The notes under the pieces are model-generated. The model did no database searches and was not told the DNA's origin. It saw only the letters and a program-made list of their open reading frames with translations. The translations under genes were made by a program, and so were the position numbers. A stretch of DNA of 64,000 nucleotides from a virus (taxonomy: Duplodnaviria; Caudoviricetes). Location of the stretch: IMG/VR virus record IMGVR_UViG_3300042988_001200, one strand, 5' to 3'. This document shows positions 1 to 33,500 of this stretch, in pieces. How positions within the stretch are numbered: the first letter of the stretch is position 1; the number at the start of each line of letters is the position of its first letter.

Positions 1-94
1 TCTTAGGTGCTTAACTATTTATAATCGATTACTTTGGGTTTACCGTTCCTTATCTACATAAATAAGAAGAGGATTTCTCCCCTTCCTAATTCAT

Positions 95-275
95 TACTCC
101 ATCCAGGATAGTAGATATCCTAGATAGGTATCCCACTCGGGACACATATCCAGGACACTACCTAAGTCCCCTGGAAGGAAGTTGGAAGCGGCTCTTAGAG
201 CCACCTCCAAACTTATCCTCCAGAATTCTCTTGGCACAACATTCTCAGAGGTTCGACACTAGTTCCTCTGCCTCA
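95..275 (-). ncRNA. Candidate structured RNA (run of hairpins); alternatively a 47-codon GTG-start ORF at about 93-237
   Basis: This is a GC-richer patch with consecutive stems on the minus strand. They are CAGAGG/CCTCTG (246-270), a long stem at 171-223 with core TTGGAGGTGGCTC-TAA-GAGCCGCTTCCAA, GTGTCCC-GAGT-GGGATAC, and AGGATA-TCTAC-TATCCT. Plus-strand C/A mismatches become G-U pairs on the minus strand. Confidence 0.3.
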
Positions 276-340
276 TAAAAAAGAGAGTTTATCTTTACTC
301 TTTCTTACAAGGTTTATCTTTTCTTATATAATTTACTTTT

Positions 341-1111
341 AAGAAAAAGGATTAAATTCTTATACTTAACTACTAAAGAGTTACTTAGTAAAACCAAGGA
401 ACTTTTATCTTCTTTAGTATTTTACTTATAATCTAAAGAAAAGGAAAGAACAGAGTTTTCTATTCTTACATTAAACTCTTATAGTTATGTCTTGACTTAA
501 CTAAACTATTAGTTAAAAGGTTACTTCTTTACCACTAACTCTATAGTTAGTAGCTCTAGAACCTAAACTTTTTTTAACTCTTAGAATCTACTTTCTTTAA
601 GAAGTAGAAGTATTAAGTAGTTAAAAGTAAGAAAAAGGATGGAAGATTTATTAACTTTCTTAAACTTAATTCTAAGTTTCCGAGTTAAATTTTTATTTTA
701 ACTAGTAACTAAGTAAAGAAAAGGCTATCTTTACTCTTCTTTAACAACTACATTCAGGGTTTAGAGTTACTTGGAAAGTAATTTCTTTAGAAGAATCTAG
801 AGTTAAGAAGTAGGTTTTAGCCTTAGAGTTCTTCTTAACTTTATTCTTTCTAGTCAAAAGACTTAACTAAGAAAAAGGAACTTTTAGAAGTTGAAGTAAG
901 GAGAAGAATCTAGAGTTAAGAAGTAGGTTTTAACCTTAGAGTTCTTCTTAACTTTATTCTTTATCTTCAAAAGACTTAACTAAGAAAAAGGAACTTTTAG
1001 AAGTTGAAGTAAGGAGAAGAATCTCTTCTTTCTAGTGTTTAAGGAAGTGAATTGTACTAGTAGAGAAAGGTTAAGTGGTACTAACTCTAGTAGTTGTAGT
1101 AAAGAAAAAGG
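341..1111 (+). repeat. Seven dispersed AAGAAAA(A)GG motifs in an ORF-free, AT-rich region
   Basis: Copies start near 341, 435, 629, 715, 869, 982 and 1102, all in the same orientation. No ORF of 60 aa or more lies in 1-1546. Confidence 0.7.
789..1024 (+). repeat. 113-bp tandem direct repeat (2 full copies plus a 10-bp start of a third)
   Basis: Units start at 789, 902 and 1015 with AGAAGAATCT. Copies 1 and 2 differ at 4 positions. Each contains the inverted repeat AGTTAAGAAG...CTTCTTAACT. 113 is not a multiple of 3. Confidence 0.95.
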
Positions 1112-3852: not shown

Positions 3853-4182
3853 CTAATATTTTAATTGAATATCTACTGGAAAGCCATGAGTACAGTGGTT
3901 ATTATTATATCCTCTAGTTTGGATATAGAATTCATCTTCATCAGTAGGGAAGTTCCTCATTAGATTATCTAGAAGAGTAATAAAGTTTGTACCTCTAGAA
4001 TCAATCCATTTGATTAATACTTGATTCTTATCTGTAGGCTTAATAGTTCCACATTTAGGATGATAAATAGTAAGAGGAAAGTCCCTAGAGTTAATATCAT
4101 TAAGAATCGTATAATCATCCAGTGCTAGAGAGGGACTAATTAAGGATAGAGTGATTAATACGGAAATTGGTAATGCTTTCAT
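3853..4182 (-). CDS. Small exported protein with a Cys pair; paralog of 11970..12287
   Basis: Signal-peptide-like N-terminus (MKALPISVLITLSLISPSLA), plus LTIYHPKC and GYNNNHCTHGFPVDI. Confidence 0.7.
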   Translation of the reverse strand: MKALPISVLITLSLISPSLALDDYTILNDINSRDFPLTIYHPKCGTIKPTDKNQVLIKWIDSRGTNFITLLDNLMRNFPTDEDEFYIQTRGYNNNHCTHGFPVDIQLKY

Positions 4183-4358
4183 ATCTTAGATAGACTATCA
4201 ATATAGTTAGTAATACAATCCTTTACTTCATATAGGGATTTACTAGAGGTAGTAAAAGACCCTTCTGAATCTATAATAAAACCTATGTATTCATTTCTAC
4301 TTCTCTTAATAATATAAAAGATTCCCTTATAGAACTCTTGATATTCATAAGAATTCAT
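4179..4358 (-). CDS. 59-aa protein with a HicB-N-like pattern (not in the ORF track)
   Basis: MNSYEYQEFYKGIFYIIKRSRNEYIGFIIDSEGSFTTSSKSLYEVKDCITNYIDSLSKI; its stop overlaps the next start as ATGA. Confidence 0.6.
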   Translation of the reverse strand: MNSYEYQEFYKGIFYIIKRSRNEYIGFIIDSEGSFTTSSKSLYEVKDCITNYIDSLSKI

Positions 4359-4370
4359 TATATATAGGTA

Positions 4371-4541
4371 TTAGTTATAATAATCCTTAATACTTTGAAT
4401 AAGGGTTTTAATAGTTTCATCTTTATCTTTTCCATTAGCTATAAGACTAAGGTTACTCTCTCTATATATAGCCACCCAGCCATCGGATATTTCCTCTATT
4501 TCAATAAGGTAGCCATCTATTATAAAGGTTTCTGGGTTCAT
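4371..4541 (-). CDS. 56-aa HicB-N-like protein (not in the ORF track); paralog of 5582..5788
   Basis: MNPETFIIDGYLIEIEEISDGWVAIYRESNLSLIANGKDKDETIKTLIQSIKDYYN; it abuts the upstream gene. Confidence 0.65.
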   Translation of the reverse strand: MNPETFIIDGYLIEIEEISDGWVAIYRESNLSLIANGKDKDETIKTLIQSIKDYYN

Positions 4542-5504: not shown

Positions 5505-5581
5505 TTATTGTTCTTTATAAAGTATTAACCTTTCTTATTAGGTTAAATAAGAAAGGTATATTTGTTATTTAATTGCTGTTA

Positions 5582-5788
5582 TTATAGGAGTTCTTGATGA
5601 AGATATATTACTAAACTATGGATAGCAGTATCTTTATCTGTATGAGATTTAGTAATAACTAGGCCCTTAGTTTTATAAGAAGCGCACCATTCATAGCCAT
5701 TTCCCTTTGGTAGAGTCTCTACTTCTATATAGTAACCATCAATAAAGAGACTCTCAATAGTATTACCAAACTCATTAGTTCTTACCAT
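5582..5788 (-). CDS. 68-aa HicB-N-like protein
   Basis: FIDGYYIEVE...WCASYK..GLVITKSHTDKDTAIHSL aligns with 4371..4541. Confidence 0.6.
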   Translation of the reverse strand: MVRTNEFGNTIESLFIDGYYIEVETLPKGNGYEWCASYKTKGLVITKSHTDKDTAIHSLVIYLHQELL

Positions 5789-6699
5789 AAATCTTTATTT
5801 AGAGGATTAATTAGACTCTTAGCTTTAACTAGAAAGGGGTCATTATGTTCTACTTTACTGCATATAAAGTCATATAGAACCCTAGCTTTATCCCATTTCT
5901 CATTTTCAATATAGTAATTCAAAGAATTAAAATGACTGTTAATGTATATTTCTCTTTCATTAAAGTTAAGTAAATCCCTATTTATTTGACTATAAAGTTT
6001 CCCATAACCCTTATATTCTTCTAGTTCATCCTTAACTAAGATAGTGGAACGGTTATAGTCACCTATTACATAGGGAGATTGAGTAGTAATAAAGAATTGG
6101 TGATTAGGGAAGTTATTGATAAGTAAATGTAGAATCTCACTCTGATATTTAATAGGAATATACCTTTCTATCTCATGGATAAATACTATTCCATTACTAG
6201 ATTTATTAATATTAAGAATAGAACTATAGTATTCCAATGGGGAATCCAATAAATTGGACTCTTCTATATCTCTTTCTCTAAACTTATTAAAGAGAAATAT
6301 ATTAAGGTTATCCTTAAATAAGACTAGATTATCCCATATATTCTTATAGGATTCATTCTCATTAATAACTATAAGATAAGAATTATTAATGAATCTAAGT
6401 GTTAGATTATTAATCCTAAACTCTATTAAACTATAGGAAGTCTCTGAATTAAAGGATCCTTCTATTGAGATAGTGTCTCCTAGTAAAGGACTATTACTAT
6501 ATAAATCAATAACTAAATCCCCTTGAATATCCTCATAAGTTCTCCAGTTATTTTCTTTTAACCCTAGTAGATATCTTAATGCTTTAACCATACTAGATAA
6601 AAGAGCGTTAGCTCCTTGAGTAATATCATCAAAAAAGAGGTTAACTCTGTCTATCTTAGTAGTAGAATTATTTAACTTTAATGATTTAATATGTAGCAT
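5782..6699 (-). CDS. Degenerate AAA_21/AAA_15 (PtuA-like) ABC-type ATPase
   Basis: The N-terminal HIKSLKLNN strand is present, but Walker A reads QGANALLSS (no GKS/T) and Walker B reads GIVFIHEIE. It also has YIPIKYQ..IL..L...FPNHQFFITTQSPYVI and a C-terminal helical tail ending DPFLVKAKSLI. Confidence 0.7.
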   Translation of the reverse strand: MLHIKSLKLNNSTTKIDRVNLFFDDITQGANALLSSMVKALRYLLGLKENNWRTYEDIQGDLVIDLYSNSPLLGDTISIEGSFNSETSYSLIEFRINNLTLRFINNSYLIVINENESYKNIWDNLVLFKDNLNIFLFNKFRERDIEESNLLDSPLEYYSSILNINKSSNGIVFIHEIERYIPIKYQSEILHLLINNFPNHQFFITTQSPYVIGDYNRSTILVKDELEEYKGYGKLYSQINRDLLNFNEREIYINSHFNSLNYYIENEKWDKARVLYDFICSKVEHNDPFLVKAKSLINPLNKDLW

Positions 6700-6703
6700 T
6701 AAC

Positions 6704-7168
6704 TTAATCCTCTTTAAGTAAATGTAAATAGGCTCTTATATCTTCTTTATTGGATAGAGTTGTAACATTATTAGAGTTAAGATTCTGAATAGCATCATTA
6801 AGAATGTCCTTTTTAAGTCTATTAAACTCTGGATTATTTAACTCTAATTGGTTTAAAACCTCATCTATAAATATATCAATAGTATATAAACAAAGCTTAT
6901 ATGTATCTAGTTCACCCTTAAGAAATAGATATAACCTTTTATGAATAGGCAGATTAATAGGTAAATCAAGGTATTTATATACAATATTTACTACATAATC
7001 CTTAGTTCTATTAGGTATATTATTCCAATTACTCTTAACTATGAGTCTTAGATTGGTTATAGATTCTATAAACTCAATAGGGTTATGTGGAAGTTTACCT
7101 TTATTAAATATACCTAGATAAGATAAACTTACTAGAGTAGAGGGGTGGATTAACATTTTCTTATTCAT
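6704..7168 (-). CDS. Hypothetical protein
   Basis: 154-aa ORF in the co-oriented run. Confidence 0.65.
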   Translation of the reverse strand: MNKKMLIHPSTLVSLSYLGIFNKGKLPHNPIEFIESITNLRLIVKSNWNNIPNRTKDYVVNIVYKYLDLPINLPIHKRLYLFLKGELDTYKLCLYTIDIFIDEVLNQLELNNPEFNRLKKDILNDAIQNLNSNNVTTLSNKEDIRAYLHLLKED

Positions 7169-7188
7169 ATTTAATCTATATAAAAGCT

Positions 7189-7220
7189 AATCTCCTAGTG
7201 TAGAAATATACTAGGAGATT
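7189..7220 (-). terminator. Intrinsic terminator downstream of the PatX-like ORF
   Basis: 11-bp stem AATCTCCTAGT/ACTAGGAGATT followed on the minus strand by AGCTTTTA. Confidence 0.65.
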
Positions 7221-7227
7221 ACTTAGT

Positions 7228-7803: not shown

Positions 7804-8038
7804 TTAATAAATAACACTAGTGTCCCTCTTTTCTAATATCTTTATATCTATAGATTCTAGTTCTTTATTTGTGAAATAGACATTACCCATTTCACTTTCA
7901 AAACAAAGGGCTGGATAGTATTCTACTTCTTTACCATTCTCATCTCTAGATATAAAATATGGATTCTTTCTACTAGAGTCATATTATAGATTAAAGTTCT
8001 CTATATCGATAACATTCCAATCTAATTGTTAGCTTCAT
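7804..8038 (-). pseudogene. Broken small ORF (one frameshift and one stop)
   Basis: ATG at 8038 gives MKLTI. A +1 shift gives DWNVIDIENFNL*YDSSRKNPYFISRDENGKEVEYYPALCFESEMGNVYF...SVIY*. Confidence 0.35.
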
Positions 8039-9530
8039 AATCTATTAATAGAGCCTCAATAGGTTGATATCTAGGATTAGATAGAACTTCAGTATTAAGT
8101 ATAGACTTAGGTTCCAGACTACAATCATTCATTAGAGCTTTAAGTAATGATTCACTAAACCCACTAACTAGACTAACCCCCGGGGTGCTACATGAGGGAT
8201 AATCCATAGTATCACCTCTTAGATTCCAAAAGACTAGTTGAGGCATAGTATACCCATACTCTGAGTACAATGACTTAATCCCATCTAGATTAGTAGATAG
8301 ATTACCCTTATCGAACTCATCAAACTGACAATCACTAAATACCAATATGGTTCTAGGCATATCCTCTTGGGTTACTCTAGTCCCCCTAGCTTTGTCTAAT
8401 AGAACTTTAAAGGCTCCTCCAAAGTTAGTGTTATATCCTACCTCCATATCATTAAAGCTAGAGATTCTATCCTTTAATGTACTTCCTTTAATCTTAAAGA
8501 AGCTAGGCTTGTTTGTAAAGGTGATGATAAGGTCTTTGAATGGTGGGTTATTAAGTTCACTAACCATTAAACCAAGGGCTAGACATACATACATAGGGGT
8601 TCCATTCATTGAACCAGACACATCGCACATAGGTATAACCCCGTTTAATCTACCTTTAGATTTAAGTTCATCTACTAAGGTTTTCCATTGAGCTTCTATA
8701 ACCTTTTCTTGTAAGGCATTGTTATTAAATAAAAGGGCTTTAGTTATAGTATGAGGATAAAGGGTCCTAGCATTAATTTTAGACTCACAATTAGATAATC
8801 CTTCTATCCATTGAGTAAATCTTTGTTTATCATGTATCTCAAAGGCTTTACGGTATAAGTTCATAGCTATAGAAGGAACTTTAGAATAATCTATACTATC
8901 CCATTGATTAGAGCACATTTTTGACTCTACAATATCTATCTTTTGTCTAAGAGTAACAAGCATCTTTCTATAGCTCTTTTCCTTCATATTAAGAGCTATA
9001 AGTAGGTTACTATAGCTATCTCTATACTTCTTAGCTAGGGATTTATTAGGGGAGGGGGCCCATTTACCTACTAGAGATACATTATTCTTAGTAGATTTAT
9101 AGTCAGATATAAGCTGGTCACTAAGGACTTTAATAAAGGTTTTACTTTCATTAGAGTTACAATCCAGATTCATACCTAGTTGAATAGTGGTTTTCCAACT
9201 ACCATATTCAGCACTAAGATACCAAAATAAGGGGTTATTCAGTAATCTAAGTCTTAGATTCTCATAATTACCCCAGGGATTAGAGAAGGTAAATCTATAC
9301 ACATCCTTCCATTTCTTACCACCTCTAGGGTCTCTAGCATGAAATATAACCTTAAGAGTTTCTAGTAAATCCTCATCTAAACTCTCTTTTACTAGGTCTA
9401 TAAGTTTAGATTCATCTAATCCCTGATTGGTTTTAAAGAATAGATTAAGGACTTTACTCCCACTATCACCATAAGATAAAGCCCCGTTCTCTGTATATAC
9501 TTGGGTTTTATTAAATAGATTACTAAACAT
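8022..9530 (-). CDS. DUF2828-family vWA protein (TROVE/Ro60-like architecture)
   Basis: TENGALSY..SGSKVLNLFF, HARDPRGG, GKWAP, YRKMLVTLRQKIDIVESKMC..QWDSIDYSKVPSIAM, TLYPH, MIDAS motif CDVSGSM, FSDCQFD, PQLVFWNLR, LVSGFS. Confidence 0.88.
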   Translation of the reverse strand: MFSNLFNKTQVYTENGALSYGDSGSKVLNLFFKTNQGLDESKLIDLVKESLDEDLLETLKVIFHARDPRGGKKWKDVYRFTFSNPWGNYENLRLRLLNNPLFWYLSAEYGSWKTTIQLGMNLDCNSNESKTFIKVLSDQLISDYKSTKNNVSLVGKWAPSPNKSLAKKYRDSYSNLLIALNMKEKSYRKMLVTLRQKIDIVESKMCSNQWDSIDYSKVPSIAMNLYRKAFEIHDKQRFTQWIEGLSNCESKINARTLYPHTITKALLFNNNALQEKVIEAQWKTLVDELKSKGRLNGVIPMCDVSGSMNGTPMYVCLALGLMVSELNNPPFKDLIITFTNKPSFFKIKGSTLKDRISSFNDMEVGYNTNFGGAFKVLLDKARGTRVTQEDMPRTILVFSDCQFDEFDKGNLSTNLDGIKSLYSEYGYTMPQLVFWNLRGDTMDYPSCSTPGVSLVSGFSESLLKALMNDCSLEPKSILNTEVLSNPRYQPIEALLIDYEANN

Positions 9531-18390: not shown

Positions 18391-18541
18391 TATTACTTAT
18401 ATACAACTAGTTATATCTATATTTAATAGAGAGGGGGACTTATTAGATTGTATAAGTGAGTATTTACCTAACTCTATATCTGTAATAAGAAGTAAGGTAA
18501 AGGTGGTTTATAAGATGATAGAGAAGCTAGAACTAGACTAA
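18293..18541 (+). CDS. Possible small hypothetical protein; start uncertain
   Basis: Fills the gap up to the giant ORF, but the only in-frame ATG overlaps the previous gene by about 100 nt. Confidence 0.3.
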   Translation: MIILYQLMSNHLMIYSCLTQQPIELDSLKIPNDITYIQLVISIFNREGDLLDCISEYLPNSISVIRSKVKVVYKMIEKLELD

Positions 18542-21500
18542 ATCCTCATACTCAGAGTTATCTATAGTAAGTTCAACTACAGAGTTGTTAGAGACCATAG
18601 CAAAGAGACCCTCTGGTACAGAGAATTCATTAGATATATAATCCCCTTCAAATATAGACTCACTAACTCTAACCATCTCCTCCCATTGAATAAACCCACC
18701 ATCCTCACTATAGATATCTGGGTCATTAGTATCCTGCTCTGTACTATAAGCCTCTGATATAAGTTGCTCATCTATAGCCTCAATAGCTCTTTCTATAATA
18801 GTAAACTCTGATTGGTTATCTGTTATAGGTTGCATCATACTACCAGCTATACCTGCACCTACCATACCAAATAGTCCTGAGAGTACAGCACTAGTTATAC
18901 TCTGAGCAGCTATCCTTTTACCGCCCATAGCATCATAATCTAGAGCTCCTTTATTACTATTAAATAGATATCTTAGTTTCTCATTAGAGGAAAGTTGACT
19001 AAGTTTAGCTTCTCTATACATCTGAGCTTTATATGAGCTTAGATGAGATAGAGACATCATAGAGTTAATAGCACTCTTCTCTACAAATGGAGCTACTACA
19101 GAAGCACCTAGAGTAAAACCTATTTCTCTAGCTGCTGCTAACCCTATAGCCTCACCTAAATCTCCATCTGTTTCACTAAGAGCCATATTAAGTTTAAAGG
19201 AGCCTCCTATCATAGACTTAGTTAACATAGCTTTAGGGTCTATACTAGTTCCCTTCTTACCGTAGGCTATAGAAAAGATAGTACCCCCCACTATATTACC
19301 TATAGCGTCTGGGTTGATAGTCCCATTAATAACAGCACTACCTATAGTGGTTAGAGCTAGAGGTAATGCTAGTTCCATAAAGTTATTAATGTTATTAAAC
19401 TGTACTGCCTGGGATAGATTATTAAAATTAGGGGTAAGGGACTGGGCGTAAGCATTAGAACTACCTGTATCTACCTTGGTTCTAAGACTGGCTAGTTTAT
19501 GCTGTCTATACTCTGATGTGGCTTTATTATATTGTCTCTCTATCTGTTCTATCTCTGTTATAGAGAGACCATGATTCTCTCCTAATAGAGCTTTAATAAA
19601 ACTCTCTCCCTCTACATAAGAATCTATCTCCTCTTTTTTTCCATACATCTTAGTAAGGAACTCGTTAAGAGCCCTCCCTTTTGCCATAGAGGCAGTGGTC
19701 TCTAACTTATTTGATAGATACTTCTCTAGAGTGGTATTAATAGTATTACCATTTTCATCCTTATACTCCATACTAGAACCAGACTCAATGGCATTAAATA
19801 GAGCTAGTCTAGATTGAAAGTCTTTCTTAGCTTCTTCCTCTGGCATGTTAGCTAGTTTGTATGCAAATGTATCAACTATTTTTCCATTCTCCTTTTTAAT
19901 ACCAGTCATAAGGAGAGGGATATTTCCTTTAAAGTTAGTCTTTAAAAATTCATTAGAGGCAAAGGTATCCCATACAGCAGGTATAGCATGAGAGCTTAGT
20001 TTATTACTTCCAGCTAAATTAAGCATGGTATCCCATATATCAGCTCCTAGTAGTTCAGTATTAGAAGAGTTACCTCCCATTAGGCTAATAGTTTTTTGTC
20101 TAGCTCCTTCCATATCTGTAAATCTACTTAACCCCTCTCCATATTTACCCATCATCTTATCGGTAAATTCTGTAGTAGTATTAATAATCTCTAACATACT
20201 AAGAACCTCTCTAGCTCCTCCTTTATTTGTATCTAGGTTTAAGTAATTAGATTTAATATCCTCTTCATTTTTATTAAAGATTCTAGATAGGATATGAAGG
20301 TTTCTAGAACCCTCTGCTGTATCTGAATTAAATCTTTTATTAATGAAATCTTGTATATCTTCTCCATTTACCTGGTCTCTATCCTTACCTAACTCCCTAC
20401 TTATTATCCCTATATAACCAGAGAAGATGGTGTCTAAGAAGCTACTTTGTTCCCCTTTATCATATCCACTTGCTCCTGTAGTTATGTTATATCTATAGGC
20501 TATAACTAAGGATTCAAGGTCTCTCTTTACCTTTAAAGCTCCAATATCAAAGGCTGATATCTCCTCTTTATTACCAAATGTATTAAGTTCTTGTACTAAT
20601 CTTTCATATTGGGTGTTATCAATACTAAGGTCTGAGGCTAGAATCTGCTCATTCTTAGTAGAAGTAGCCCCTCCCCAGAAGGATGAAACTATTACCCCAT
20701 TCATTAATTTAACTCTTCCATCCTCACTTAAGGTCTCTCTATTTCTCACTAAAGAGCCTAGTTGCATAAATACATCCATACCAACATTAGAGCCAGAGGG
20801 ACCGAACTTACCTGCTTCTCTAGTGATAAGAGCTCTTTGTTTATCTGGATTATCACTTAGGGACTCATATTCACTAGATAGTCTCTCCATATTAGCTATG
20901 AAATCACCTCCAGCTTTAGGTTTAATTCCATCTCTTAATAGTTGGTTTATGCTTTTTATAAAGGCTAGGATTCCCTCTCCTGTATCACTATTTCTCTTAA
21001 TAGAGGATACAAAGTCCTCTTCTTTTATCCCTTGAGAATTATAGAAATCATTATCTCTAAGGAACTGTTTAGTAGATTCCTCTTGAATAATAGAGGATAG
21101 AGCTAGTAAAGGACTCTCTTGATATAAAGTTCCTACAAAGGTGTTATAGGTTTTACCTAGTACATCACCCCCAGCTTTACCCATAATCTTAACCATCATG
21201 TCATAACCAGTAAGAGACATATTAACCCCTGCCCCCTGTCCTAATATAGATTGAAGACTACTTACACTCTTTAATCTAGCTGCATATAAACCACTAGCCC
21301 TAGCTAATATCTCCTCCTCTTGTTCCTTAGATATAGAAGTAGAGTTAGGGGCAATAGATTGTATAGATTTGTACATAAGATCTAATAAATCCTTCTGAGC
21401 CTCCTCTCCCATAAGTAATATACCTAGATAAGTATTTCTATTAGCATTAGTCTCATCTTGGGCTAATACCTTTAATCTATCTTGTAATAAATGAAACCCA

Positions 21501-24500
21501 GAATGGGCATTAGATACAGAAGCTAGATAGCTAAATAAAGACATATTAGGACCATTATTACCAGTAGTAGGTATACCTGTTTGTTGCTTAGATAAAACAG
21601 TAGTCTCTGTATTTATAAAGACATCCTTAAGGATGCTATTCACTTTCTTAATAGAAGAGCCCGTACCCCCTAATCCCCCAAATAGACCTCTACCCTGTTC
21701 TATAAAAGTAAGAGCTACATTCATACTTATATCATTCTGTTGAAAACCTTCTGGTCCTCCTAAGAAATGTTCTACTCTTATACCTAGGTAGTTAGCCACC
21801 TCTTTCTTAACAGCTTTACTAAAAGAGGAACTTTCTAATTGATTTCTCCAGGTGTATAACTTAGCCTTATTATTAGCTATCCTTACTTTATGTTCCTCTA
21901 TCTCACTCTTAAGGATATGAACCCTAGTCTTTTCTTCTTTTATACCTTCTTCTAAAGCCAATCTATCTTCATATGAGGATAAGGGACCTAGACCCCCTAC
22001 TTTATTATCAATGCTAGTATCTAGAGCCCTTATTCTAGCCTCTGTAGTCTTAATCATAATACTGTCACTCTCTATAGACCTTTGTAGGTCCATAAACTGA
22101 CTAAAGATAGTAGTATAGGGGTCCCCATCAAAGTCCCCTATATTCATAGTTAAAAGGGATATGGGGGATAGTAGAGATAATCCTTTATTCCTTTCCTCAT
22201 CGTATTGAACCATAGAATCCTGTCCTATAGCTTGATTAAGTAGAGATATATCTTGTATAACAGTAAGAGCCATTCTTTGTTGTTCACTACCTCCAATGGG
22301 GGGACTTCTAAATCCTAAGACTTCAATACTATCTCTCATGTCTAGATGGTTCATCATTTTTTCCATTAGAGCTATAGAGTTAGATAAAAGACTTTCATTA
22401 AGAGTTAGTTTATATTTATTTACTACTTGTCCTTTAACTACTCTAGACTCTGTAACAGCTAGCTTAGGGTTTATATTTAATAAAGAATATATATTTATAT
22501 CTGGGTCAATAGATTTAAATATCCTTTCTAGAGCTTTAAGGGATGTGTCATTAATAGATTGGGTCTTAACTATCTTTCTAAGTATGGCTAGCCCACTAGA
22601 TAAATCATCTAGTCCCTGTTTATTCTTATTAAGCATATCTATTTGAGATTCTGAGTTCTTAAAGGTATCTCTAGCCCTTCTACTAAACTCTTGACTTACT
22701 GAACTAGAGCTCTTAATATACTCTCCTAGAGCTGTCTCTATAACTATAGCCTTCTCCTTAATATCAGATATACCCCCTAGGTATTTATGCTCATCAAAGG
22801 AGAAACTTTTAGTTTTTTTATAAGTACCTTCTAAAGATTCAATAGTTTGAAGTAATCCAGGTTTATCTTTAGTACCCTCCAAATGTTGATAAATAGAACT
22901 ATATTCCTCTTTAAATCTTTGATTCGATTGAGGTATAATATTCTCGAATCTATATTGAATATAAGCCAATTTCATTTTTATTGGCTCATAGGTAATATTT
23001 TCATTGGCCTCTATATATTTTTGATGTTCTTCTATAGCATTACCTTCTTTATCTTTTCCAAACCATTTAGGAACTTTAATACTATCTATATCCTTATATA
23101 GAGTTTCTAGTTCACCCTCAGATAGAGATGGGTTCTCTAGTTTAAGTTGAGATATAACTAGTTCTTGTTTTCTCTTTTTAAGTTCATCTAATTGATTTTT
23201 AGTATCAGCTTGATAGGTAGTAAATATATTTCTTATAGCTTCTTTAAACAGCTTAATTTCTTTACCTATATTAAGAACTTTATCCTTTAGACTTCTATGT
23301 TGAGAAATTATAGAACTCCTTTGTTCTAGTAGAGTAGTTTTTCTTACTTCTATTAGTTTATTAATAGAGAGGGTTATAGATTCTTCTAACTCTCTTAATT
23401 GATTAAGTTCAGAGTGATACTCTATAGAGTTTCCAGGATGAATTTGCTTTTTAAACTCTTGTATCTCACTTCTTATATTGGCTCTATTAATCTCTAAAGA
23501 TTCTATTAGTCTAGTAAACTCTCTTTTTTCAATAGATTTATCTATTCCTATATCTCTAAGAAATAAAGAAGCGGCTTTCTCTTCTCTTATAATTATTTCT
23601 TTATACTTGGATATAGACTTAGATAAACCCTGGATAGAGGATTTAGTATCTACTTCACCTAATCTACTTTGTATTTCTTTTATAGCTTTACCATTAATCT
23701 CATCATATTTAGATTTAAGTTCCTTTTCTCTAGACATTAGATAAGTAATAACAGGGGAGTACCTATCTAAACTAGATAATCCTTCTATAGAATTTATCCT
23801 AGTAGATAAGTGTTCTATTTCTCCATCTAACTTTTTAATTTGAAGCTCTAATGGACTTTCATATTCACTAATCTCTTGAGTAAGAGCTAATTGCTTTCTT
23901 TCTAATTTAGCTTTATACTCTGTTAAATCAGCCCATTCACTATCGGCTATCTCTTCATAAGGAGCTATCTTTAAGAAATAAAGTCTATTTTCTAATTCCC
24001 TCTCTTCTAATAAAAGTCTAGAAGAGTCTTGTTTATACTCTTTAACTTTGTATAAATGATTAAGTTTATTTTTTACTTCTGTATATTCTTTATCTATTTT
24101 GTTAATATATTCTGTACTATGAATTCCTAAGTGTATATTTCTCTTAATCTTAGATAAGATTTCTAATCTAGATTTATAACTAGAAATATCTTCTTCTAGA
24201 ATTCTATAGCCATTGGAACTTGGATTTAAACCCATCCAAGGAGGAGTTTCCAAAGCACTTCTATCATATATTTTTATACTACTTTTAATTTTATTTATAT
24301 ATTTTAATCTACTTTCAATTTCTCTAGAGTATTGGTATATAAGTCTTTTAGTAGTACCTAGCCAAGTTTCTCCTTCTAATTCACTTATAGTTCTATTAAC
24401 ATATTTATGTTCTTCTTCAAGTTCTTGTTGTATAGATTCTAGTTTCTTTATATCTCTTTCTCTAATTTCCTCGTCCCTTTTTTTAGCTTCTGGTGAGGAT

Positions 24501-27500
24501 AGAAACTCTATAGTAGCATTTCTATATTTCATTTCGAGTTCACTTAATTCTAGTTGTTTACTCTCTAAGGAATTATATCTACTACCATAATCATCTAGAT
24601 AAACACTCTTAGAAGTAGAGTCTATACTCTGTTGAATACTAGTTCTAGCTCTATTTAATCTATTTAACTCATTCTCTAAATCACTTATAGAGTTATTACT
24701 ATACTCATTTCTACTTTTATCTAGTTCTTTCCTTAATACTATAGAGGTAGAATCACTAGGTTTAATGTCTGGAAATAATTCTCTACCTACTAAACTATTC
24801 TGTTCTAGAGTTATATTGGCTCTCTTTATATATAGTTCTTGTTCTACTTTTCTAATTCTATCTTCTATTTGTTGTAGATTATTACCATGAATTAGTAAAT
24901 CTTCATTATTAGGTCTAACCATTATAGTTCCACTTTTACCCTCTTCTTTAGCCTTTTGTATCTGTTCTATAAGGTTTATTTGTTCTTCTCTTAATTTAAT
25001 TAATCTATTCTTATCATCTCTAATAGAATTTAACTCCTCACTTATTCCAATTAAGGAGGAGATTCTATCTCTTTCTAGTTCTAATATCTTAACCTTACTC
25101 TTTATATAACCATCTTCTAAATCAATATCCTTAGAGTTCTTTATTAAATCTAGTTCATATTCCAATTTAGATAAGTTATCTCTAGTGGGTCTCATCCCCT
25201 TAACCTTACTTTCTTGTAGCTTTAATCTATAGATAATACTATCTGAACTATCGATTTCTTCTATAGTTCTTTCTATATAATGAATCTCTTTATTAACATC
25301 TGATAGGTTACTACTATATATTCCTCTAATAAAAGAGGCTATTCTCTTAACTGTTTTATTATCTGGAACTATCTTACTTAATGATTTACCTTCTTCTACT
25401 ATCTTAGTTAATCTAGTTCTTTCACTATTTAATTCTTTAATCCTTTCATTAATAAGGGTTTTATCTATACCCTCACTAGCTCTTTTAAGACTTAATAGCT
25501 CTAATCTCTGTTTATTTAAACTCTCAACTTGGCTTTCTATATCAACTAAATAGCTATTTAGATAATCCAAACTACTAGATATATCAAAGCTACCACTCTT
25601 TTCTAGAGCCTTAAAACTATTTAATATACTAGATAACTCCTCTCTTTTATTTATTAAAGAAGGGAGACTGTTTATTTGATTAATCTTTCTAGATAATGAA
25701 TCTGGGTCATTACCACTAGAATTAATTCTTTGTAATTCATTTAAATCTCTTAACTCCCTATTTATCTCTCTAAAGGTAGGAGCATATGCTTCAATATGGC
25801 TCTGAACTCTCTTATAATATTCACTGAACAATACAGATACTGGTATAGAATCCACCCCAGTAGCTACTTGTAAAACCCTTCTTATATTACCTAGTTCCAA
25901 TTGATTAGCTTTACTTAATCTCTCTTTAAATATAGAACTAGCCTCATTTACTAGTTTTAATACTTCTTCTGGGAGATTATAATAAAGGTCTTCTTGTATA
26001 GATGGAAATATGGAATAATCAACTAGATTACTTTGAAATATAGAGAAGAATATATTTAAATCCATACCTGCTGGACCACTAACTCTATTATTAATGTCTA
26101 GAGTCATCTTATATAAGAACTCGGAAGGGATATTATATCTGTATTCATTATTTAAGAAAGGCTTAGTTGTCTTCTCATAAACTATACCTTTATTCGTCTT
26201 AATCCTATTTATTTCATCTTCTAATACCTCTAGTTCTATAAGAAAGATTCCCTCTTTATATACTTTAGAACCCTCACTTAATCTTTTCCATTTATTGAAT
26301 TTAGTCTTATCTCTTTTATATGCCTTATTTTCCTCTATATCTCCTTCCACTAATCCGCTTCTTTTTATCCTTTCAGCCTCTAGTTTAGCTAGTTCTACAG
26401 CTAAAGAATCTCCCTGATTCTTACCTATTTGTATATTAGATAGGAGTTCAAGTCTAGATAAAAGGCTATTAGCCTGTCTATTAAGGGGTTCTATAACAGC
26501 AGTATCTTCTTGGTTTATACTCCCTAACTTACCAATAAGAGAGTCCACTTCTTTCTTTATAGTTAGAACTTCATCAATATACGACATACCTAAAGGAGAA
26601 AGTCCCCCTCTAACTGCTAATAAAGCTGCTCTAATAACATTCTGTTCCTTATAAGAGCTACTAGAATTACCTATATTCTCTAGTAAACTAACTAATTCAT
26701 AACGTTCAGGACTAGCACTAGTATATCTATTAAGAGCCTCTTTAGCTAATAGAATACTACCATTAGGTATTAACCAAGAAGCTGCTGATGAGGTTACAGC
26801 TCCACTATGTCTAGTTTTAAATCCAATAGCAGCTTGAGCTCTAGTACCAGCACTAGCCTCTGCCATAAGATTAACTATACCCTGGTCTCCAAAAGCATAG
26901 GAGTAGAACTTCTTAAGTAGTATAAGTTCTTCTTTATCTAGTTCAATAACACCTGTACCTTCTTCCTTAGCTCTAACAATCTTATCTCTAACATTAGACA
27001 TAGCAGTACCAGGAGCAAAGGCACTAGCTAGAAATATGGTTCTACTTACTATCTCATCAATATAAGAACCATAGGCATCACCTAATCCTTTAAGTTCAGC
27101 TCCACTCATAAGATAACTATAATACTTCTGACTATAGTCCAGCTCTAGTCTTACCTTACCCCCTATGTCATTACTACTATCCTCTGACATATATATCTGA
27201 GGAAGACTAAAGGCAAAGCTCTTATAGTTTAACTGGTCTAGTATAGGGGATACAGAACCAGCTCCAAAGGGTTTATCACTATGTAATTGATAGTACCTAC
27301 TTATATCTAATAACCTTCTAGAACTTATATTATCTAATAAAGTAAGAGCCCCAGTTATATCAAATCCAGACCCCATCTTATCTTTCATATCTACAATAAT
27401 CCCTCTTATAGCCTCATTCTCTGATGGGTTATAGGTCATTAATTGATTAATCTTTTCTATGGTATCTATCCTACTCTCAGGTGTAAGGTTATTACTATCT

Positions 27501-30500
27501 AGCTCCTTTATTAATATATTAACTACATTATTTACTAGAGCTCCATATGACTCATAGTCCTTCTTATATTGATTTAAATAGGCTGTAGTCCTAGCATCTA
27601 CCCCAGCATATATACCTAAGAACTTACTCTTATGTAATTGAGAACCTAGTCTTATATCTGATATGTCATATACTTTTTTATCTATCCAATCTCTATCCCT
27701 TATATCCCCACTTACACTATGTAAAGTTGCACTATCTGATACAACAGATAACATATTAGCAACTATAGTTCTTAATGAGGATATAGACCCTTGTTCTTGG
27801 AAGGATGAACTTACTTGCATAAGGGGTTTAAGTAAGTGCTGATATTCCAGAGCTCCTGTAGACTTAGAACCTATAGACTCCTTACTCTCAGAGGCTAGTA
27901 GGTCTGTGAATAATCTTATAACTGTAGATTGAGTAGTAAATCCTCTTACCATAGCTCTAACAGCATTAAGATAATCTAAAGATTCCTTCTCCTCTTTATC
28001 TAAAGATGTTAATGACCTTTTCTCTAATAGAGAACCCCTCTCTAGTTTATTAAGGTCCACATCCCCCATAATAGAAGCTATTTGTTTAATAATTTCATTG
28101 TTATTAAAATCTATTTCTGTAGGTATGGTTATGCCATCATTATCATATTTAGATAGTTGGGCTATAAGGTCTAGGGAACCAGCTAGTATAGAAGCCTCTC
28201 TTTCAAAGGGGTTATCTATTCTAATAAACTCTCTACCCACTAGACCTTTACCTTCTCCTAGATCTGATACTAGTTTTCTCTCTAACCATGAAGTGATATA
28301 ATTAATACCCTCTTGTTCCCCTTTAGCTGCTTTAAGTAACATCTGAGAATCTAGTAGAGCTAAGGAAGGTGTCTGTTGAGTATTAAACAATCCCTTTGTC
28401 TTAGATACTAGAGCATTACCAAACATAGAACCAAACTTAGTTCTTATATCTTGGTACTTGTGGTAATTAGGGTCACTATCATTGAATATGGCATTTATAG
28501 CAGTATCAAAGTCCCCTAATCCAGTAATAGCTCCTACTAATTCAGAGGACCCGTTTAAATGACTAATAACAGTTCCTAGAGCCTGATTCCTAAAGAAGGA
28601 ACCCATTTCCCCTTTAATACTAGATTCAAATAGAATCGTATTAATATCCTTCTTTACATCAGAATCCATCCACTCATTACCAAAGGCTAGGGCTAAGGAT
28701 AGTAATAGTTTATTCCCTTTCTTATTAGATATAGTATTAGGATTAAACTCACTTATAAGAGAACGTAATAGCTGTTCGTTTCTTACTATATGGGAACCAT
28801 GAGAATAGAAATGACTCTTTAAGTTAGTGGGGTTAAAAAGACCAAATATAGAGCCCACATCTACTTTTGTATATCCATCCTGAGTCTTATTGAATTGGGC
28901 AGCTAGATAGGAGAAGAAGTCCATGTTTTGATATCTACTATCTTTAATATCCAGGAAGTCAGTGGATGTGAATTTAAGTACAGCCTTAGCTAGAGTACCA
29001 ATACCCTCAACTCTTCTACCCCCCTCTAGAATAAAGGAGCGGTTATATACCATTTCCCATATAAGCTGGTTATTATCAGCATTACCTGTTAATTGTTTAG
29101 AGCTTACTAGATATTCTATAGAGTTAGCTGCATTCCTATGCCAAGTCTGTCTATCTAATCTAGAGACATTAGGTAAATCATCTATAGTTCTAAAGTTATC
29201 TATTACTCCATTAAGGAATGCCACCTGGTCCCTAGAGTCTACCATTGATTTAAGGACATAATGTCCAGACTCTCTATCTAAAGAATAATACTTATTAAAC
29301 TCTGTACCTAATACTGCTTGTTTAAGAGTAGATAAAACATCCTTTGATTGATTAATAAGCTCAATAGATTGTTTAACTCCACTAGTTGTTTCACTTATTA
29401 ACTCACTAGAGTTACCCCATACTAGAACTCTATTAGTATCAGTATCAAAGGTTATGATATCTCCTTTACGGGCTAGTAGTTTACCATTAGAGACCCAATC
29501 CTCTGATAGTTTAGAGGACTTCTGTTTCTTCTCTGCTTTCTCTATAAAGCCACTCATAGTTCTAATCTTAGACATAACCTCCACTCTTTCATTTAGAGGT
29601 ATGTTCTTATAGCCTTTATATTGTTTTATTAAAGAATGTAACTCTTTAATGTCATCATTACTTCCACCATATAGGGGGTTGGCATAGGCATAATCACTAA
29701 AGTCTCCAGTTAGTTGAACTAATATAACTGGATTAAGTCCTTCTGTTGTACCAGTAAACCCCTTGGTTCCAGAGGCTAAACTATCAGCACTTCTCGCTCT
29801 ATATAACAACATAAAGCGAGCTAATGAAATGTCCCCTCTTCTATATTCAAAGTCTTCTTCTTTAAATCCAAAGTCTTCTTTTAACTCTTCTTTAGCTTGT
29901 TCTACTATAGATGCTAACTCACTGGTCATAACCCCTCTAAATCCACTAGCATTTATAATTCCAATACTTAAGTCCTCACCTAAGTAACTCTCAGCTTTAA
30001 GATATAGATGATTTAGTTTATGTAATATAGTTTGTTTAGATTGATTATTTAATCCTTTTGTTCTATCTATAGCTATTTCTATTAGTCTATTAAAGGAGTA
30101 AAGTCCTATATTATCTTCTTGAACTACTATTTTCAGATTATCCAGGACCTTCTTTGTATTAGTATCTATACCAGAATTTGTAGTGTTAAGTCTATTAAAT
30201 AGGGTTTCTACTACTTGAACTTTAATATTTAGACTTCTCTTTTCTATAATATTATTAACATTACCCTTTGTTAAAAGGGCATAGGATATTTCTTTATCTA
30301 TTTCATACATACCCCTAGTTCCTAGTTTATTCTTCATTCTTTGGGGTACTTGACTAACTTTCTTAGCAACATTATAAGTATAAGTAACTATTTCATCACT
30401 ATATTTAAAGCCACTTCCATCAATAATTCTTTCATATTTACTATCAATCTTTTGGATAAGACTAGATTCAAAGGTACTTTTACCCCCCTTTCTTCTATTT

Positions 30501-33500
30501 CTATATTCATTTAATCTATTAACCATAGCTTCTATACTATGAATCTCTTCATTATATAGAGCTACTTTATACTCATTATAGATAGATTCAAAGATATATC
30601 TATCAAACTCATCTCTTTTAGTTACATATCCGACCCCACCATATTTAGCAAACTCTACTAAAGCTATATCTCCTATAGGAGTTTTCTTAATTCCATGTAT
30701 AGATAAACCCCCTTCTTCTATACTTTCACTTATAGAACCACCTTCTGCTACACCTCTAATAGCTCCTTCTGTACCCTTACCAGTAGTATCTGAAGGACCA
30801 AATATATAAGGTTGGGCTATAGCAAATCTAAATATATTGCTTATACCATCCCCTCTTTTCTTTAAATTACTAAGGAAAACTCTTTGAGACCTATTAATTC
30901 CATATAAAGGAGTTTTGAATTCAGCCTGGTTATCTGTATAAGTAGATACCTGTTTCTGTGTAATAAAGGGTTCTAGTAGTCCAGCTTTAACTAACTTAAT
31001 GGCATTAATAAAGCTATCATCGTACATAAATTCCCTTCTACTCTCTATAATTCCAAGAGCAATGTCTGATTGAAATGTATGTATATCCCCTATTCCCATA
31101 CTTAAATCGAACCCTTCTCTTATACTTTCTATAACAGCTTCCTTACTAAAGAGTAGTTGTCTCTTATTAGATTCAGATAAATTACTATCTTTAAGAGCTC
31201 TATTAATAGTTCTAATAGCTTGTAATCCTTTAATAACCCTAGTTCTTATATCTAAGTCATTAGAGTTATCTACTAATTGATATGACATAAGGGAAGAACT
31301 CTTAAGCTGAGAGACTATATCCTCTCCCCCTCTAAGGTTTAAAGAGGCTTTAAATGAGCCACTAATACCTATTCCATGTCTCTGTTCAAACTTTGTTATT
31401 AAATTAGTTATCTCTATATCTGATAGGGAACTAGACCTTAAGAAGTCTCCAGCTATGCCATTATATCTAGATACTCTCCCATAAGTTAAATACTCTAGAT
31501 AATCTAACCCAGCTTTACCTAACATACTATTACCCTGAACATTCTCCTTTTTACTTAGAGACCTCATATAATGCAAAGGTTGAGTTATTAAAGCTCTATA
31601 AGTCATCTCCCCAGCTAAAGAAGATATAACGTTAGAAAATGTTTCTATAGGTGTTAGTAATAAACTCTCCCTGCTCTTTAATGGTTTATATTGAAGACTA
31701 TAAGAACCATCATCTCTCCTAGTAAAGGAATCTTTACCATAAGGAAGATTTATAGTCTCTTCTTGATTATTAATAAATAGACTTTTACCTACTAGCTTAT
31801 TCTGGTCTATAAGATATATAAACCCACTTTTATTATTTAATCCCCCTTTTAAAGCTGTAACTCTAAAGGAGGAATTATTATATGTAACCCCAGCTTTATG
31901 TCCACTTATTAATGAACCTGCATTAATATCTACCTGTATACTTATTAGTTCTCCATGTTGACCATAAGATTTCTTTATAGATATACCTTCCCCTTTACCT
32001 AGTCCCATTTCTTTATTAAGGGCTTCTAGTCTAGCTATAAGAGTGTTAAGAGAAGCTCTATCCACTTTATTAGTCCATGAGGCTTTACTAGAGGATAGAG
32101 AACTATCTACATTACCTACTTTAGTTCTAGTTAATCTAAACCACTCTCTTTCTAGGTGTTGACCCTCTGAGGCTTTAAAGTCCTCCATCTCCTCTGACAT
32201 ACTATCTTTACTTCTATATAGAGTCCCCTCTCTTTCACCATATCTCCTCATATCTCTAGCTAGATTAATAATACCCACTTCCCCACTAGTAGTATCATCC
32301 CCTACATCAAAGGCTAAGGAGGAACTACCAAAGTTAGATGAACCTTGTATAGCTCCTATATGTTTAAAGGAATCATCCTCCCCTCTATACCTTTGTATGG
32401 CAAATATATTCTTTACATGACTCATAGTCTCTGTAACCTCTATAATATTCCCACTAGTTATAGCTAGTATCTGAAGGGCTGTTCTATAACTAGACTCACT
32501 ACTTACCTTATTATAGAATCTGGATAATTTATCTCTAGGGTCAATGAATTTATCTATAGATACTCCATAGTTAACTCCCCCTTTATCTAATCCTAAAAGA
32601 TTAATAAGGGCTTTAGAGTCTCTATTTACTGCATTAGTAAGAGTTCTTAGAGAACTACTGTATCTATCTTCAAATACCTTAGAACCTAATCTAACAGTAG
32701 ATTCATAATCTAGGGAGGTGTTCTCCATTCTACCTAGGAGATAACTAACTTTCTCTATAGTAGGTTCTAGAACTTTATCTCTATAGTTTCTAATATCAAC
32801 AGAGACATAGGCTCTTCCCTTATTAACTAGCTCAAAGAACTTATATTGAATCTCACTTCTATAGATAGAGTCTCGGTTATTACCTTTATTCCTTATTAAG
32901 AATGTTTCTATAGGTATAGTTCTAGATTTACCAGAGGGACCAAACTCTCCACTATAATCCCCTTTCTTACCATAATAGATATCATCATCTAGTTGAAGGA
33001 GCCATACCTGGTTAAGGTTAGCGTATAGTTCTATAGGTTTATCATATGTAGATTTACTAGAAGCATATTTAATCATAGTCCTAAGTCCCTGTCCTATATC
33101 CCCGGCATTACCTATTTGATTACCAGTAACAGCTCTTCTAGTTTTAATCTCATTAAGAGCTATCATCCTAGCTTGGAGGTATAGATGTGTATCTATATAC
33201 TCCTGTTTCTTCTCCTTTGTCATAGAACTAGAGAAGGAGCTTCTTATATCTAAAGCTGTTCTTTTAACTCCATCCATATCTGGAATATAGTAGCTAGATG
33301 AATTAGGATTTATTCTATCTAGTCTATTATGAAGAATGATTACTTCTTCATAGTTAGACCCTGCTACTGAAGGACTATTACCTACTGGAGAAGTTAAGTT
33401 AAAGGAGCCTAACATAGCAAACTTCTCAGTAGTATATAACTTAGGGTGATAGCTGCCACTATCTATAAACTCTAGGTTCATATTAGGTAGATAGTTAGCT

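Follow-up and report, generated by a model that had tools for sequence, protein, structure and literature searches.

The stretch of DNA analysed here (64,000 nucleotides, referred to as the window) is of phage origin and carries genes for a portal, a major head protein, a tail sheath and baseplate proteins. Its major head protein shares 39-43% identity with the counterparts in Microcoleus phage My-WqHQDG and the Microcystis Ma-LMM01 group, and the source virus is an uncultured cyanobacterial myovirus of ~204 kb (204,120 bp), distant kin of Microcystis phage Ma-LMM01. We found no tRNA genes within the window. The ORF listing and translation place a gene for a protein of 305 aa, P0001, on the minus strand, at exactly the position that an earlier note on this DNA had given (5782-6699). 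This gene is the middle member of a compact minus-strand unit of three genes, ORF154, the PtuA-like gene and ORF68 (Table 1). It is separated from ORF154 by a 4-nt gap and preceded by a good Shine-Dalgarno sequence, and its stop codon overlaps the start of ORF68 in the sequence ATGGTAA. The same minus-strand accessory block encodes a 502-aa protein (8022-9530, minus strand) with the domains DUF2828 (E 6e-44) and DUF7788 (E 4e-50), and elsewhere in the window a single minus-strand ORF of 5,372 codons occupies positions 18533-34651.

Table 1. Features of the PtuA-like gene and its three-gene unit (positions in the window; residues are those of P0001)
Feature	Position	Strand	Evidence
PtuA-derived pseudo-ATPase gene (P0001)	5782..6699	-	translation; PADLOC PtuA E 5e-21; PtuA-chain fold match Z 16; ESM Atlas TM 0.74
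N-lobe strands, former P-loop and first helix (residues 1-50)	6550..6699	-	hhalign 26 vs shuffles; AF2 pLDDT 77-89
Degenerate Walker A DDITQGAN (residues 24-31)	6607..6630	-	91-PtuA column table; G, N, G, K also replaced in both relatives
Shrunken, fast-evolving middle without signature motif or arm (residues 51-165)	6205..6549	-	pLDDT 29-54; 20% identity to P0002; mostly deleted in P0003
Walker B IVFIHE, Asp to His (residues 171-176)	6172..6189	-	phmmer vs Eco7 PtuA; DNA reading
H-loop TTQSP, His to Gln (residues 205-209)	6073..6087	-	alignment to ITTHSP
Linker with block EYKGYGKLYSQI, best-conserved part of the short family (residues 223-250)	5950..6033	-	57% identity to P0002; aligns with PtuA linker
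C-terminal helices, equivalent of the PtuB-docking domain (residues 251-305)	5785..5949	-	hhalign 99.6%; pLDDT 88-97; role from PMC12819146, PMC12673091
ORF154, orphan gene 4 nt upstream, possible HNH-less PtuB remnant (weak)	6704..7168	-	PtuB profile 8.8 bits
ORF68, small downstream gene, ATG on preceding stop	5582..5788	-	sequence reading; no family match
Hairpin, upstream border of the three-gene unit	7188..7221	.	terminator-like scan
Hairpin, downstream border of the three-gene unit	5528..5557	.	terminator-like scan

Septu (PtuAB) modules are widespread, and type I-A retrons use PtuAB too. PtuA models make up 24 of the 25 best PADLOC matches of P0001 (best E 5e-21, residues 168-300), and the PtuA alignments always span residues ~166-300 and reach the profile ends. 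The NCBIfam PtuA model NF041760 was matched with E 1e-15 and 57.2 bits, which misses its equivalog cut-off of 500 bits. A phmmer comparison with PDB sequences likewise retrieved retron I-A and Septu PtuA chains, and hhalign against 40 canonical PtuAs returned a probability of 99.6% for residues 165-301; identity to any bacterial PtuA is only ~30%. Judged from these sequence comparisons, the homology of residues 166-300 to PtuA is far beyond chance. Pfam yielded no AAA family, neither AAA_15 nor AAA_21, at E values up to 1 (hmmscan), and the relationship is visible only through PtuA-specific profiles and the fold.

HMMER detected no PtuA similarity in residues 1-165. In an hhalign comparison of the PtuA profile with a profile of the short family (P0001 and its two relatives described below), the N-terminus nevertheless aligned at the expected register with PtuA positions 9-63, which comprise the first strands, the P-loop and the helix of PtuA; the score of 26 compares with 12.3 +/- 2.8 and a maximum of 21 in 150 column shuffles. 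An AF2 model built with an alignment (pLDDT 70.7; high for residues 1-50 and 165-300, low for 52-160) superimposed on PtuA chains with Z 15-16 over 252-260 residues, 1..305 on Septu PtuA 1..462 (VIA-align), a match that is not independent of PtuA sequences as these were part of the input alignment. More weight is thus carried by the independent ESM Atlas model, which matches 400-465-aa AAA_15/AAA_21 ATPases with TM 0.72-0.75 over 270-282 residues. Run on the single sequence, AF2 produced only a low-quality model (pLDDT 47). In the two former models, the chain forms an ABC-type head, then a linker and at its end a C-terminal domain of three helices.

The heads of AriA, GajA, OLD and SMC proteins fitted the P0001 model with Z 10-12 and left its C-terminal helices uncovered. 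AriA of PARIS and GajA of Gabija share the ABC-type head fold with P0001 (Z 12.1 and 11.4), but their alignments end at about residue 225-245, and the C-terminal helices match PtuA only; AriA chains reached Z 10-12 over residues 1-225, and neither protein is among the 25 best PADLOC matches. An identity as AriA, GajA or OLD appears unlikely on these lower fold scores and the unmatched C-terminal helices. PtuA of Septu and type I-A retrons, and not AriA or GajA, comes out as the closest family.

We then compared P0001 column by column with 91 canonical PtuA sequences. The columns of Walker A, GxNGxGK[ST], read DDITQGAN and contain neither the Lys nor the Ser/Thr; the G, N, G and K of this motif, each 95-99% conserved in the reference set (K 99%), are D, I, T and A. 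The phmmer alignment sets IVFIHEIERYIP of P0001 opposite IVLIDEIELHLHP of PtuA, so that the Walker B Asp is replaced by His while the Glu is kept, and it pairs IVFIHE with 391-IVLIDE-396 of retron Eco7 PtuA. Where PtuA has the H-loop ITTHSP, P0001 has ITTQSP, with Gln in place of a His that is 99% conserved in the 91 sequences. The canonical D-loop LHLHP corresponds to RYIP, its two histidines being replaced by Tyr and Pro, and the columns of the signature motif LSxGE and the conserved R/W columns are gaps. Also missing is the helical arm or coiled-coil insertion, whose conserved columns are gapped or replaced, and P0001 is 100-160 residues shorter than canonical PtuA from bacterial loci (410-470 aa). 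Retained are the fold-core residues I174, L193, F197, P198, Q201, F202, T206, S208 and P209, together with G233, R249 and A272, which are invariant positions of the linker and C-terminal part in canonical PtuA, and the NDP motif.

These alignments agree with the earlier reading of a Walker A without GKS/T, of HE in place of the Walker B DE (here in alignment with PtuA chains of the PDB), of TQSP in place of the H-loop THSP and of a retained C-terminal helical tail. Its further claim that the whole scaffold is kept holds only for the head and the tail, since P0001 has neither signature motif nor helical arm and is shorter (305 against 410-470 aa). In retron Eco7 PtuA, each of the single changes D395A, E396Q, N95A and H400A abolishes ATPase activity or defence (PMC12673091), so that the catalytic death of P0001 can safely be inferred. 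Judging by its sequence, P0001 should neither bind nor hydrolyse ATP and should not assemble into the usual PtuA tetramer or hexamer. Compared with solved PtuAs (PDB 8EE4/8EEA, 9KJX, 9E90, 9O4A), it has in common the C-lobe, the linker, the three-helix C-terminal domain and the whole-chain fold, and its N-terminus is collinear with the PtuA P-loop region; it differs from PtuAs of Septu and type I-A retrons in its length (305 against 410-550 aa), the missing motifs and arm, the absence of a downstream ptuB and its carrier, a lytic-type phage. P0001 is PtuA-derived, yet it lacks what defines a working PtuA, and it is a new phage-borne, non-catalytic form of this known family. The central claim of the earlier note, a catalytically dead PtuA-type ATPase in a phage, is thus supported by sequence, profile and fold evidence.

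An HMMER search of 1.84 billion representatives returned 543 relatives of P0001, only three of which are close: P0002 (312 aa, about 37-38% identity over the full length), P0003 (181 aa) and P0004 (81 aa). All three are encoded on one metagenomic contig of 61,144 bp, where P0003 and P0004 look like a second copy that was apparently split after the H-loop strand. The short family thus consists of three genes in public data, P0001, P0002 and P0003 (with P0004). P0003 also lacks the middle region, and the 81-aa piece recurs in another assembly (P0153); the apparent split may stem from a frameshift, from decay or from an error of assembly. Scans of IMG/VR and metagenomes with P0001, P0002 and an alignment of both found no loci, the BFVD viral structures contained no convincing relative, and blastn of the gene region against phage records gave no matches; tblastn against the same records retrieved three gut contigs only, and the one inspected carries an ordinary ptuA-ptuB pair beside hsdR.

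The same motifs are missing in both relatives, and the residues found in their place differ: the Walker B Asp is H/Q/Q and the H-loop His is Q/S/K across the family, and the P-loop replacements are unrelated. Common to the members are the Walker B Glu (3/3) and a Tyr at the first D-loop His position. Among the 119 search proteins in which both motifs could be located (115 plus the four short-family sequences), 113 keep both the Walker B Asp and the H-loop His. Between P0001 and P0002, identity is 57% in the linker, 49% in the C-lobe, 20% in the middle and only 28% in the C-terminal helices; the linkers of the two proteins share 12 consecutive identical residues, a block shared among the short family. 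The relatives preserve the core of the fold and the invariant residues of linker and C-terminus while the catalytic positions vary, and an intact ORF was retained in at least two diverged lineages after catalysis was lost. This selective conservation, together with intact ORFs at 37% identity in DNA of ~28% G+C, argues for purifying selection, which would have acted on the non-catalytic form since before the lineages split and would make P0001 a pseudo-enzyme rather than a gene in decay.

We weighed these patterns against the possibility that the gene is what is left, in decay and without present function, of a Septu operon that the phage lineage had once acquired. The complete loss of the catalytic motifs, a middle region that is shrinking and poorly conserved, the apparently split copy (181-aa and 81-aa pieces) on the related contig and the rarity of the family would all fit such decay. 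A reading frame of 305 codons has stayed intact, however, at a base composition of ~28% G+C where stops arise easily; a second full-length copy with conserved blocks, including the 12 identical residues in a row, exists at 37% identity; structural and C-terminal invariants persist where catalytic residues vary; and the gene retains a good Shine-Dalgarno sequence and its operon coupling. We therefore regard the remnant explanation as improbable.

A still-active defence NTPase with a non-canonical site, which would shield the phage or its host from other phages, is hardly credible. The Walker B glutamate is present in all three members, and defence systems are sometimes carried by phages, but P0001 lacks the glycines and the lysine of the P-loop, the signature motif, the histidines of the D- and H-loops and a nuclease partner, and the four Eco7 PtuA changes named above, D395A, E396Q, N95A and H400A, are each disabling on their own (PMC12673091). 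Residual ATPase activity was rejected because all motifs are lost.

No HNH or PtuB protein was detected in the neighbouring genes or the window with a PtuB query and a 69-sequence PtuB profile, in line with the earlier statement that an HNH or toxin partner is not adjacent; ORF154, directly upstream, gives a weak PtuB-like signal. It ranks first among the 528 ORFs of the window against the 69-sequence profile, with a weak score (8.8 bits, E 0.04) that 1 of 3000 shuffles reached, and it remains first with two disjoint PtuB subsets. The matches form two collinear stretches, before and after the missing HNH core, and the second one corresponds to the start of the C-terminal, PtuA-binding domain of PtuB. 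ORF154 may thus be an HNH-less remnant of PtuB, and we treat this weak signal as a lead and not as a finding. The protein has no detectable homologue, the metagenomes of the relatives included, and no informative Atlas neighbours; ORF154 and ORF68 match no family in Pfam, PHROGs, PADLOC or NCBIfam and show no recognisable effector domain. By eye, ORF68 resembles two nearby mini-ORFs, all three being small minus-strand ORFs with a strands-then-helix pattern (5582-5788, 68 aa; 4371-4541, 56 aa; 4179-4358, 59 aa), and none of them matches Pfam, PHROGs, PADLOC or NCBIfam.

The arrangement of the three genes raises another explanation, in which P0001 is the scaffold of a module owned by the phage (ORF154, PtuA-like protein, ORF68) and the dead ATPase was exapted as an adaptor for phage proteins. 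Such a module could serve superinfection exclusion, a toxin-antitoxin-like switch or regulation, all unrelated to the blocking of a host Septu system. The three genes are translationally coupled (4-nt gap, ATGGTAA) and bracketed by hairpins, and ORF154 is weakly collinear with PtuB, including the start of the PtuA-binding C-terminal domain, which implies that the C-terminal helices of P0001 may bind a phage partner rather than one of the host. We consider this explanation unlikely on balance but serious: the ORF154 signal is weak (8.8 bits), neither neighbour carries a recognisable effector domain, and a partnership with a protein that has no detectable homologue is not visibly conserved. The same resemblance would also permit a two-part inhibitor, made of a PtuB without its HNH core but with its PtuA-binding tail (ORF154), which would cap host PtuA, and a dead, arm-less PtuA with its PtuB-binding tail (P0001), which would sequester host PtuB, so that the host PtuAB complex is attacked from two sides. 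We hold this combination to be quite improbable; if true, no earlier case would be known in which an ATPase-nuclease immune system is inhibited by two components that both derive from defence.

Our favoured reading of the gene is that of a miniaturised, non-catalytic descendant of Septu or retron I-A PtuA, which acts as a decoy against a putative host Septu system; we hold it tentatively and give it somewhat less than an even chance. In solved PtuAB complexes, the paired C-terminal extensions of PtuA clamp one PtuB C-terminal domain in a nine-helix bundle, the PtuA linker lends stability to the dimer, and higher-order assembly runs through the coiled-coil or flap of PtuA (PMC12819146, PMC12673091). 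With its ABC-type head, linker and three C-terminal helices kept and catalysis and the arm gone, P0001 would be a non-enzymatic binder, and selection would have preserved it as a working binding protein within a small group of uncultured cyanophages. Early in infection, its linker and C-terminal module would be deployed. P0001 could then self-associate and titrate the PtuB nuclease of the host, or it could pair with a host PtuA protomer to yield a dead, arm-less heterodimer; either way, a host Septu system would be blunted. The equivalents of Eco7 N95, H400 and H402, which make the nucleotide-mediated head-to-head contact, are replaced in P0001, which casts doubt on a heterodimer formed via the heads.

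What makes a decoy plausible is the retention of the PtuB-docking module, and the idea has a precedent: viral cas homologues inhibit CRISPR through defective complexes (Katz et al., bioRxiv 10.1101/2023.06.24.545427). P0001 resembles these in being a defence subunit copied onto a mobile element, which could join or imitate a host complex and thereby render it defective, but they have been shown experimentally to act on Cascade/Cas3, whereas the putative target of P0001 would be Septu. Several observations speak against a decoy. The conservation of the C-terminal helices (28% within the family, ~30% to bacterial PtuA) is loose for a mimic that has to fit a host protein, the close coupling to two orphan genes may point to a role within the phage itself, and the short family is tiny, with one copy apparently split.

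Known counter-measures of phages against Septu comprise extra tRNA-Tyr genes, SegB-driven tRNA amplification and the proteins Anhur and Svarog (PMC13728456; bioRxiv 10.1101/2025.06.06.658234). The anti-Septu strategies that we found in the literature act via tRNA-Tyr supply or uncharacterised proteins. A decoy would serve the same end, escape from PtuAB, but none of the counter-measures described there is a PtuA homologue. A phage PtuA of which little but the docking surfaces remains would lend itself to a dominant-negative role, and if the decoy reading is true, the evolution of inhibitors by co-opting defence subunits would extend from CRISPR to ATPase-nuclease systems. It would also expose the linker and C-terminal module as a weak point of PtuAB and open a way to study how bloom-forming cyanobacteria defend themselves and how their phages respond. 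Should the decoy idea fail, P0001 would still be a clean example of a virus pseudo-enzyme under selection.

The origin of the gene was examined with a tblastn scan that used the C-terminal half of the phage protein against one genome per species, and the best 80 matches were retained. A ptuB homologue lies directly downstream of ptuA at 69 of these 80 bacterial loci and at 26 of the 29 cyanobacterial ones. Filamentous cyanobacteria account for 10 of the top 13 and for 29/80 of the best matches listed, a ranking that fits the capture of a host gene by a cyanophage and by which alone a cyanobacterial origin is suggested. In a tree of the C-terminal halves, the short family falls outside all of the canonical PtuAs at the end of a very long branch, and because of this branch length the tree cannot place it inside cyanobacterial PtuA. 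As an observation in its own right, Septu-type ptuA-ptuB pairs are strikingly common in filamentous cyanobacteria among these best 80 matches, with representatives in Nostoc, Microcoleus, Lyngbya, Mastigocoleus and Calothrix.
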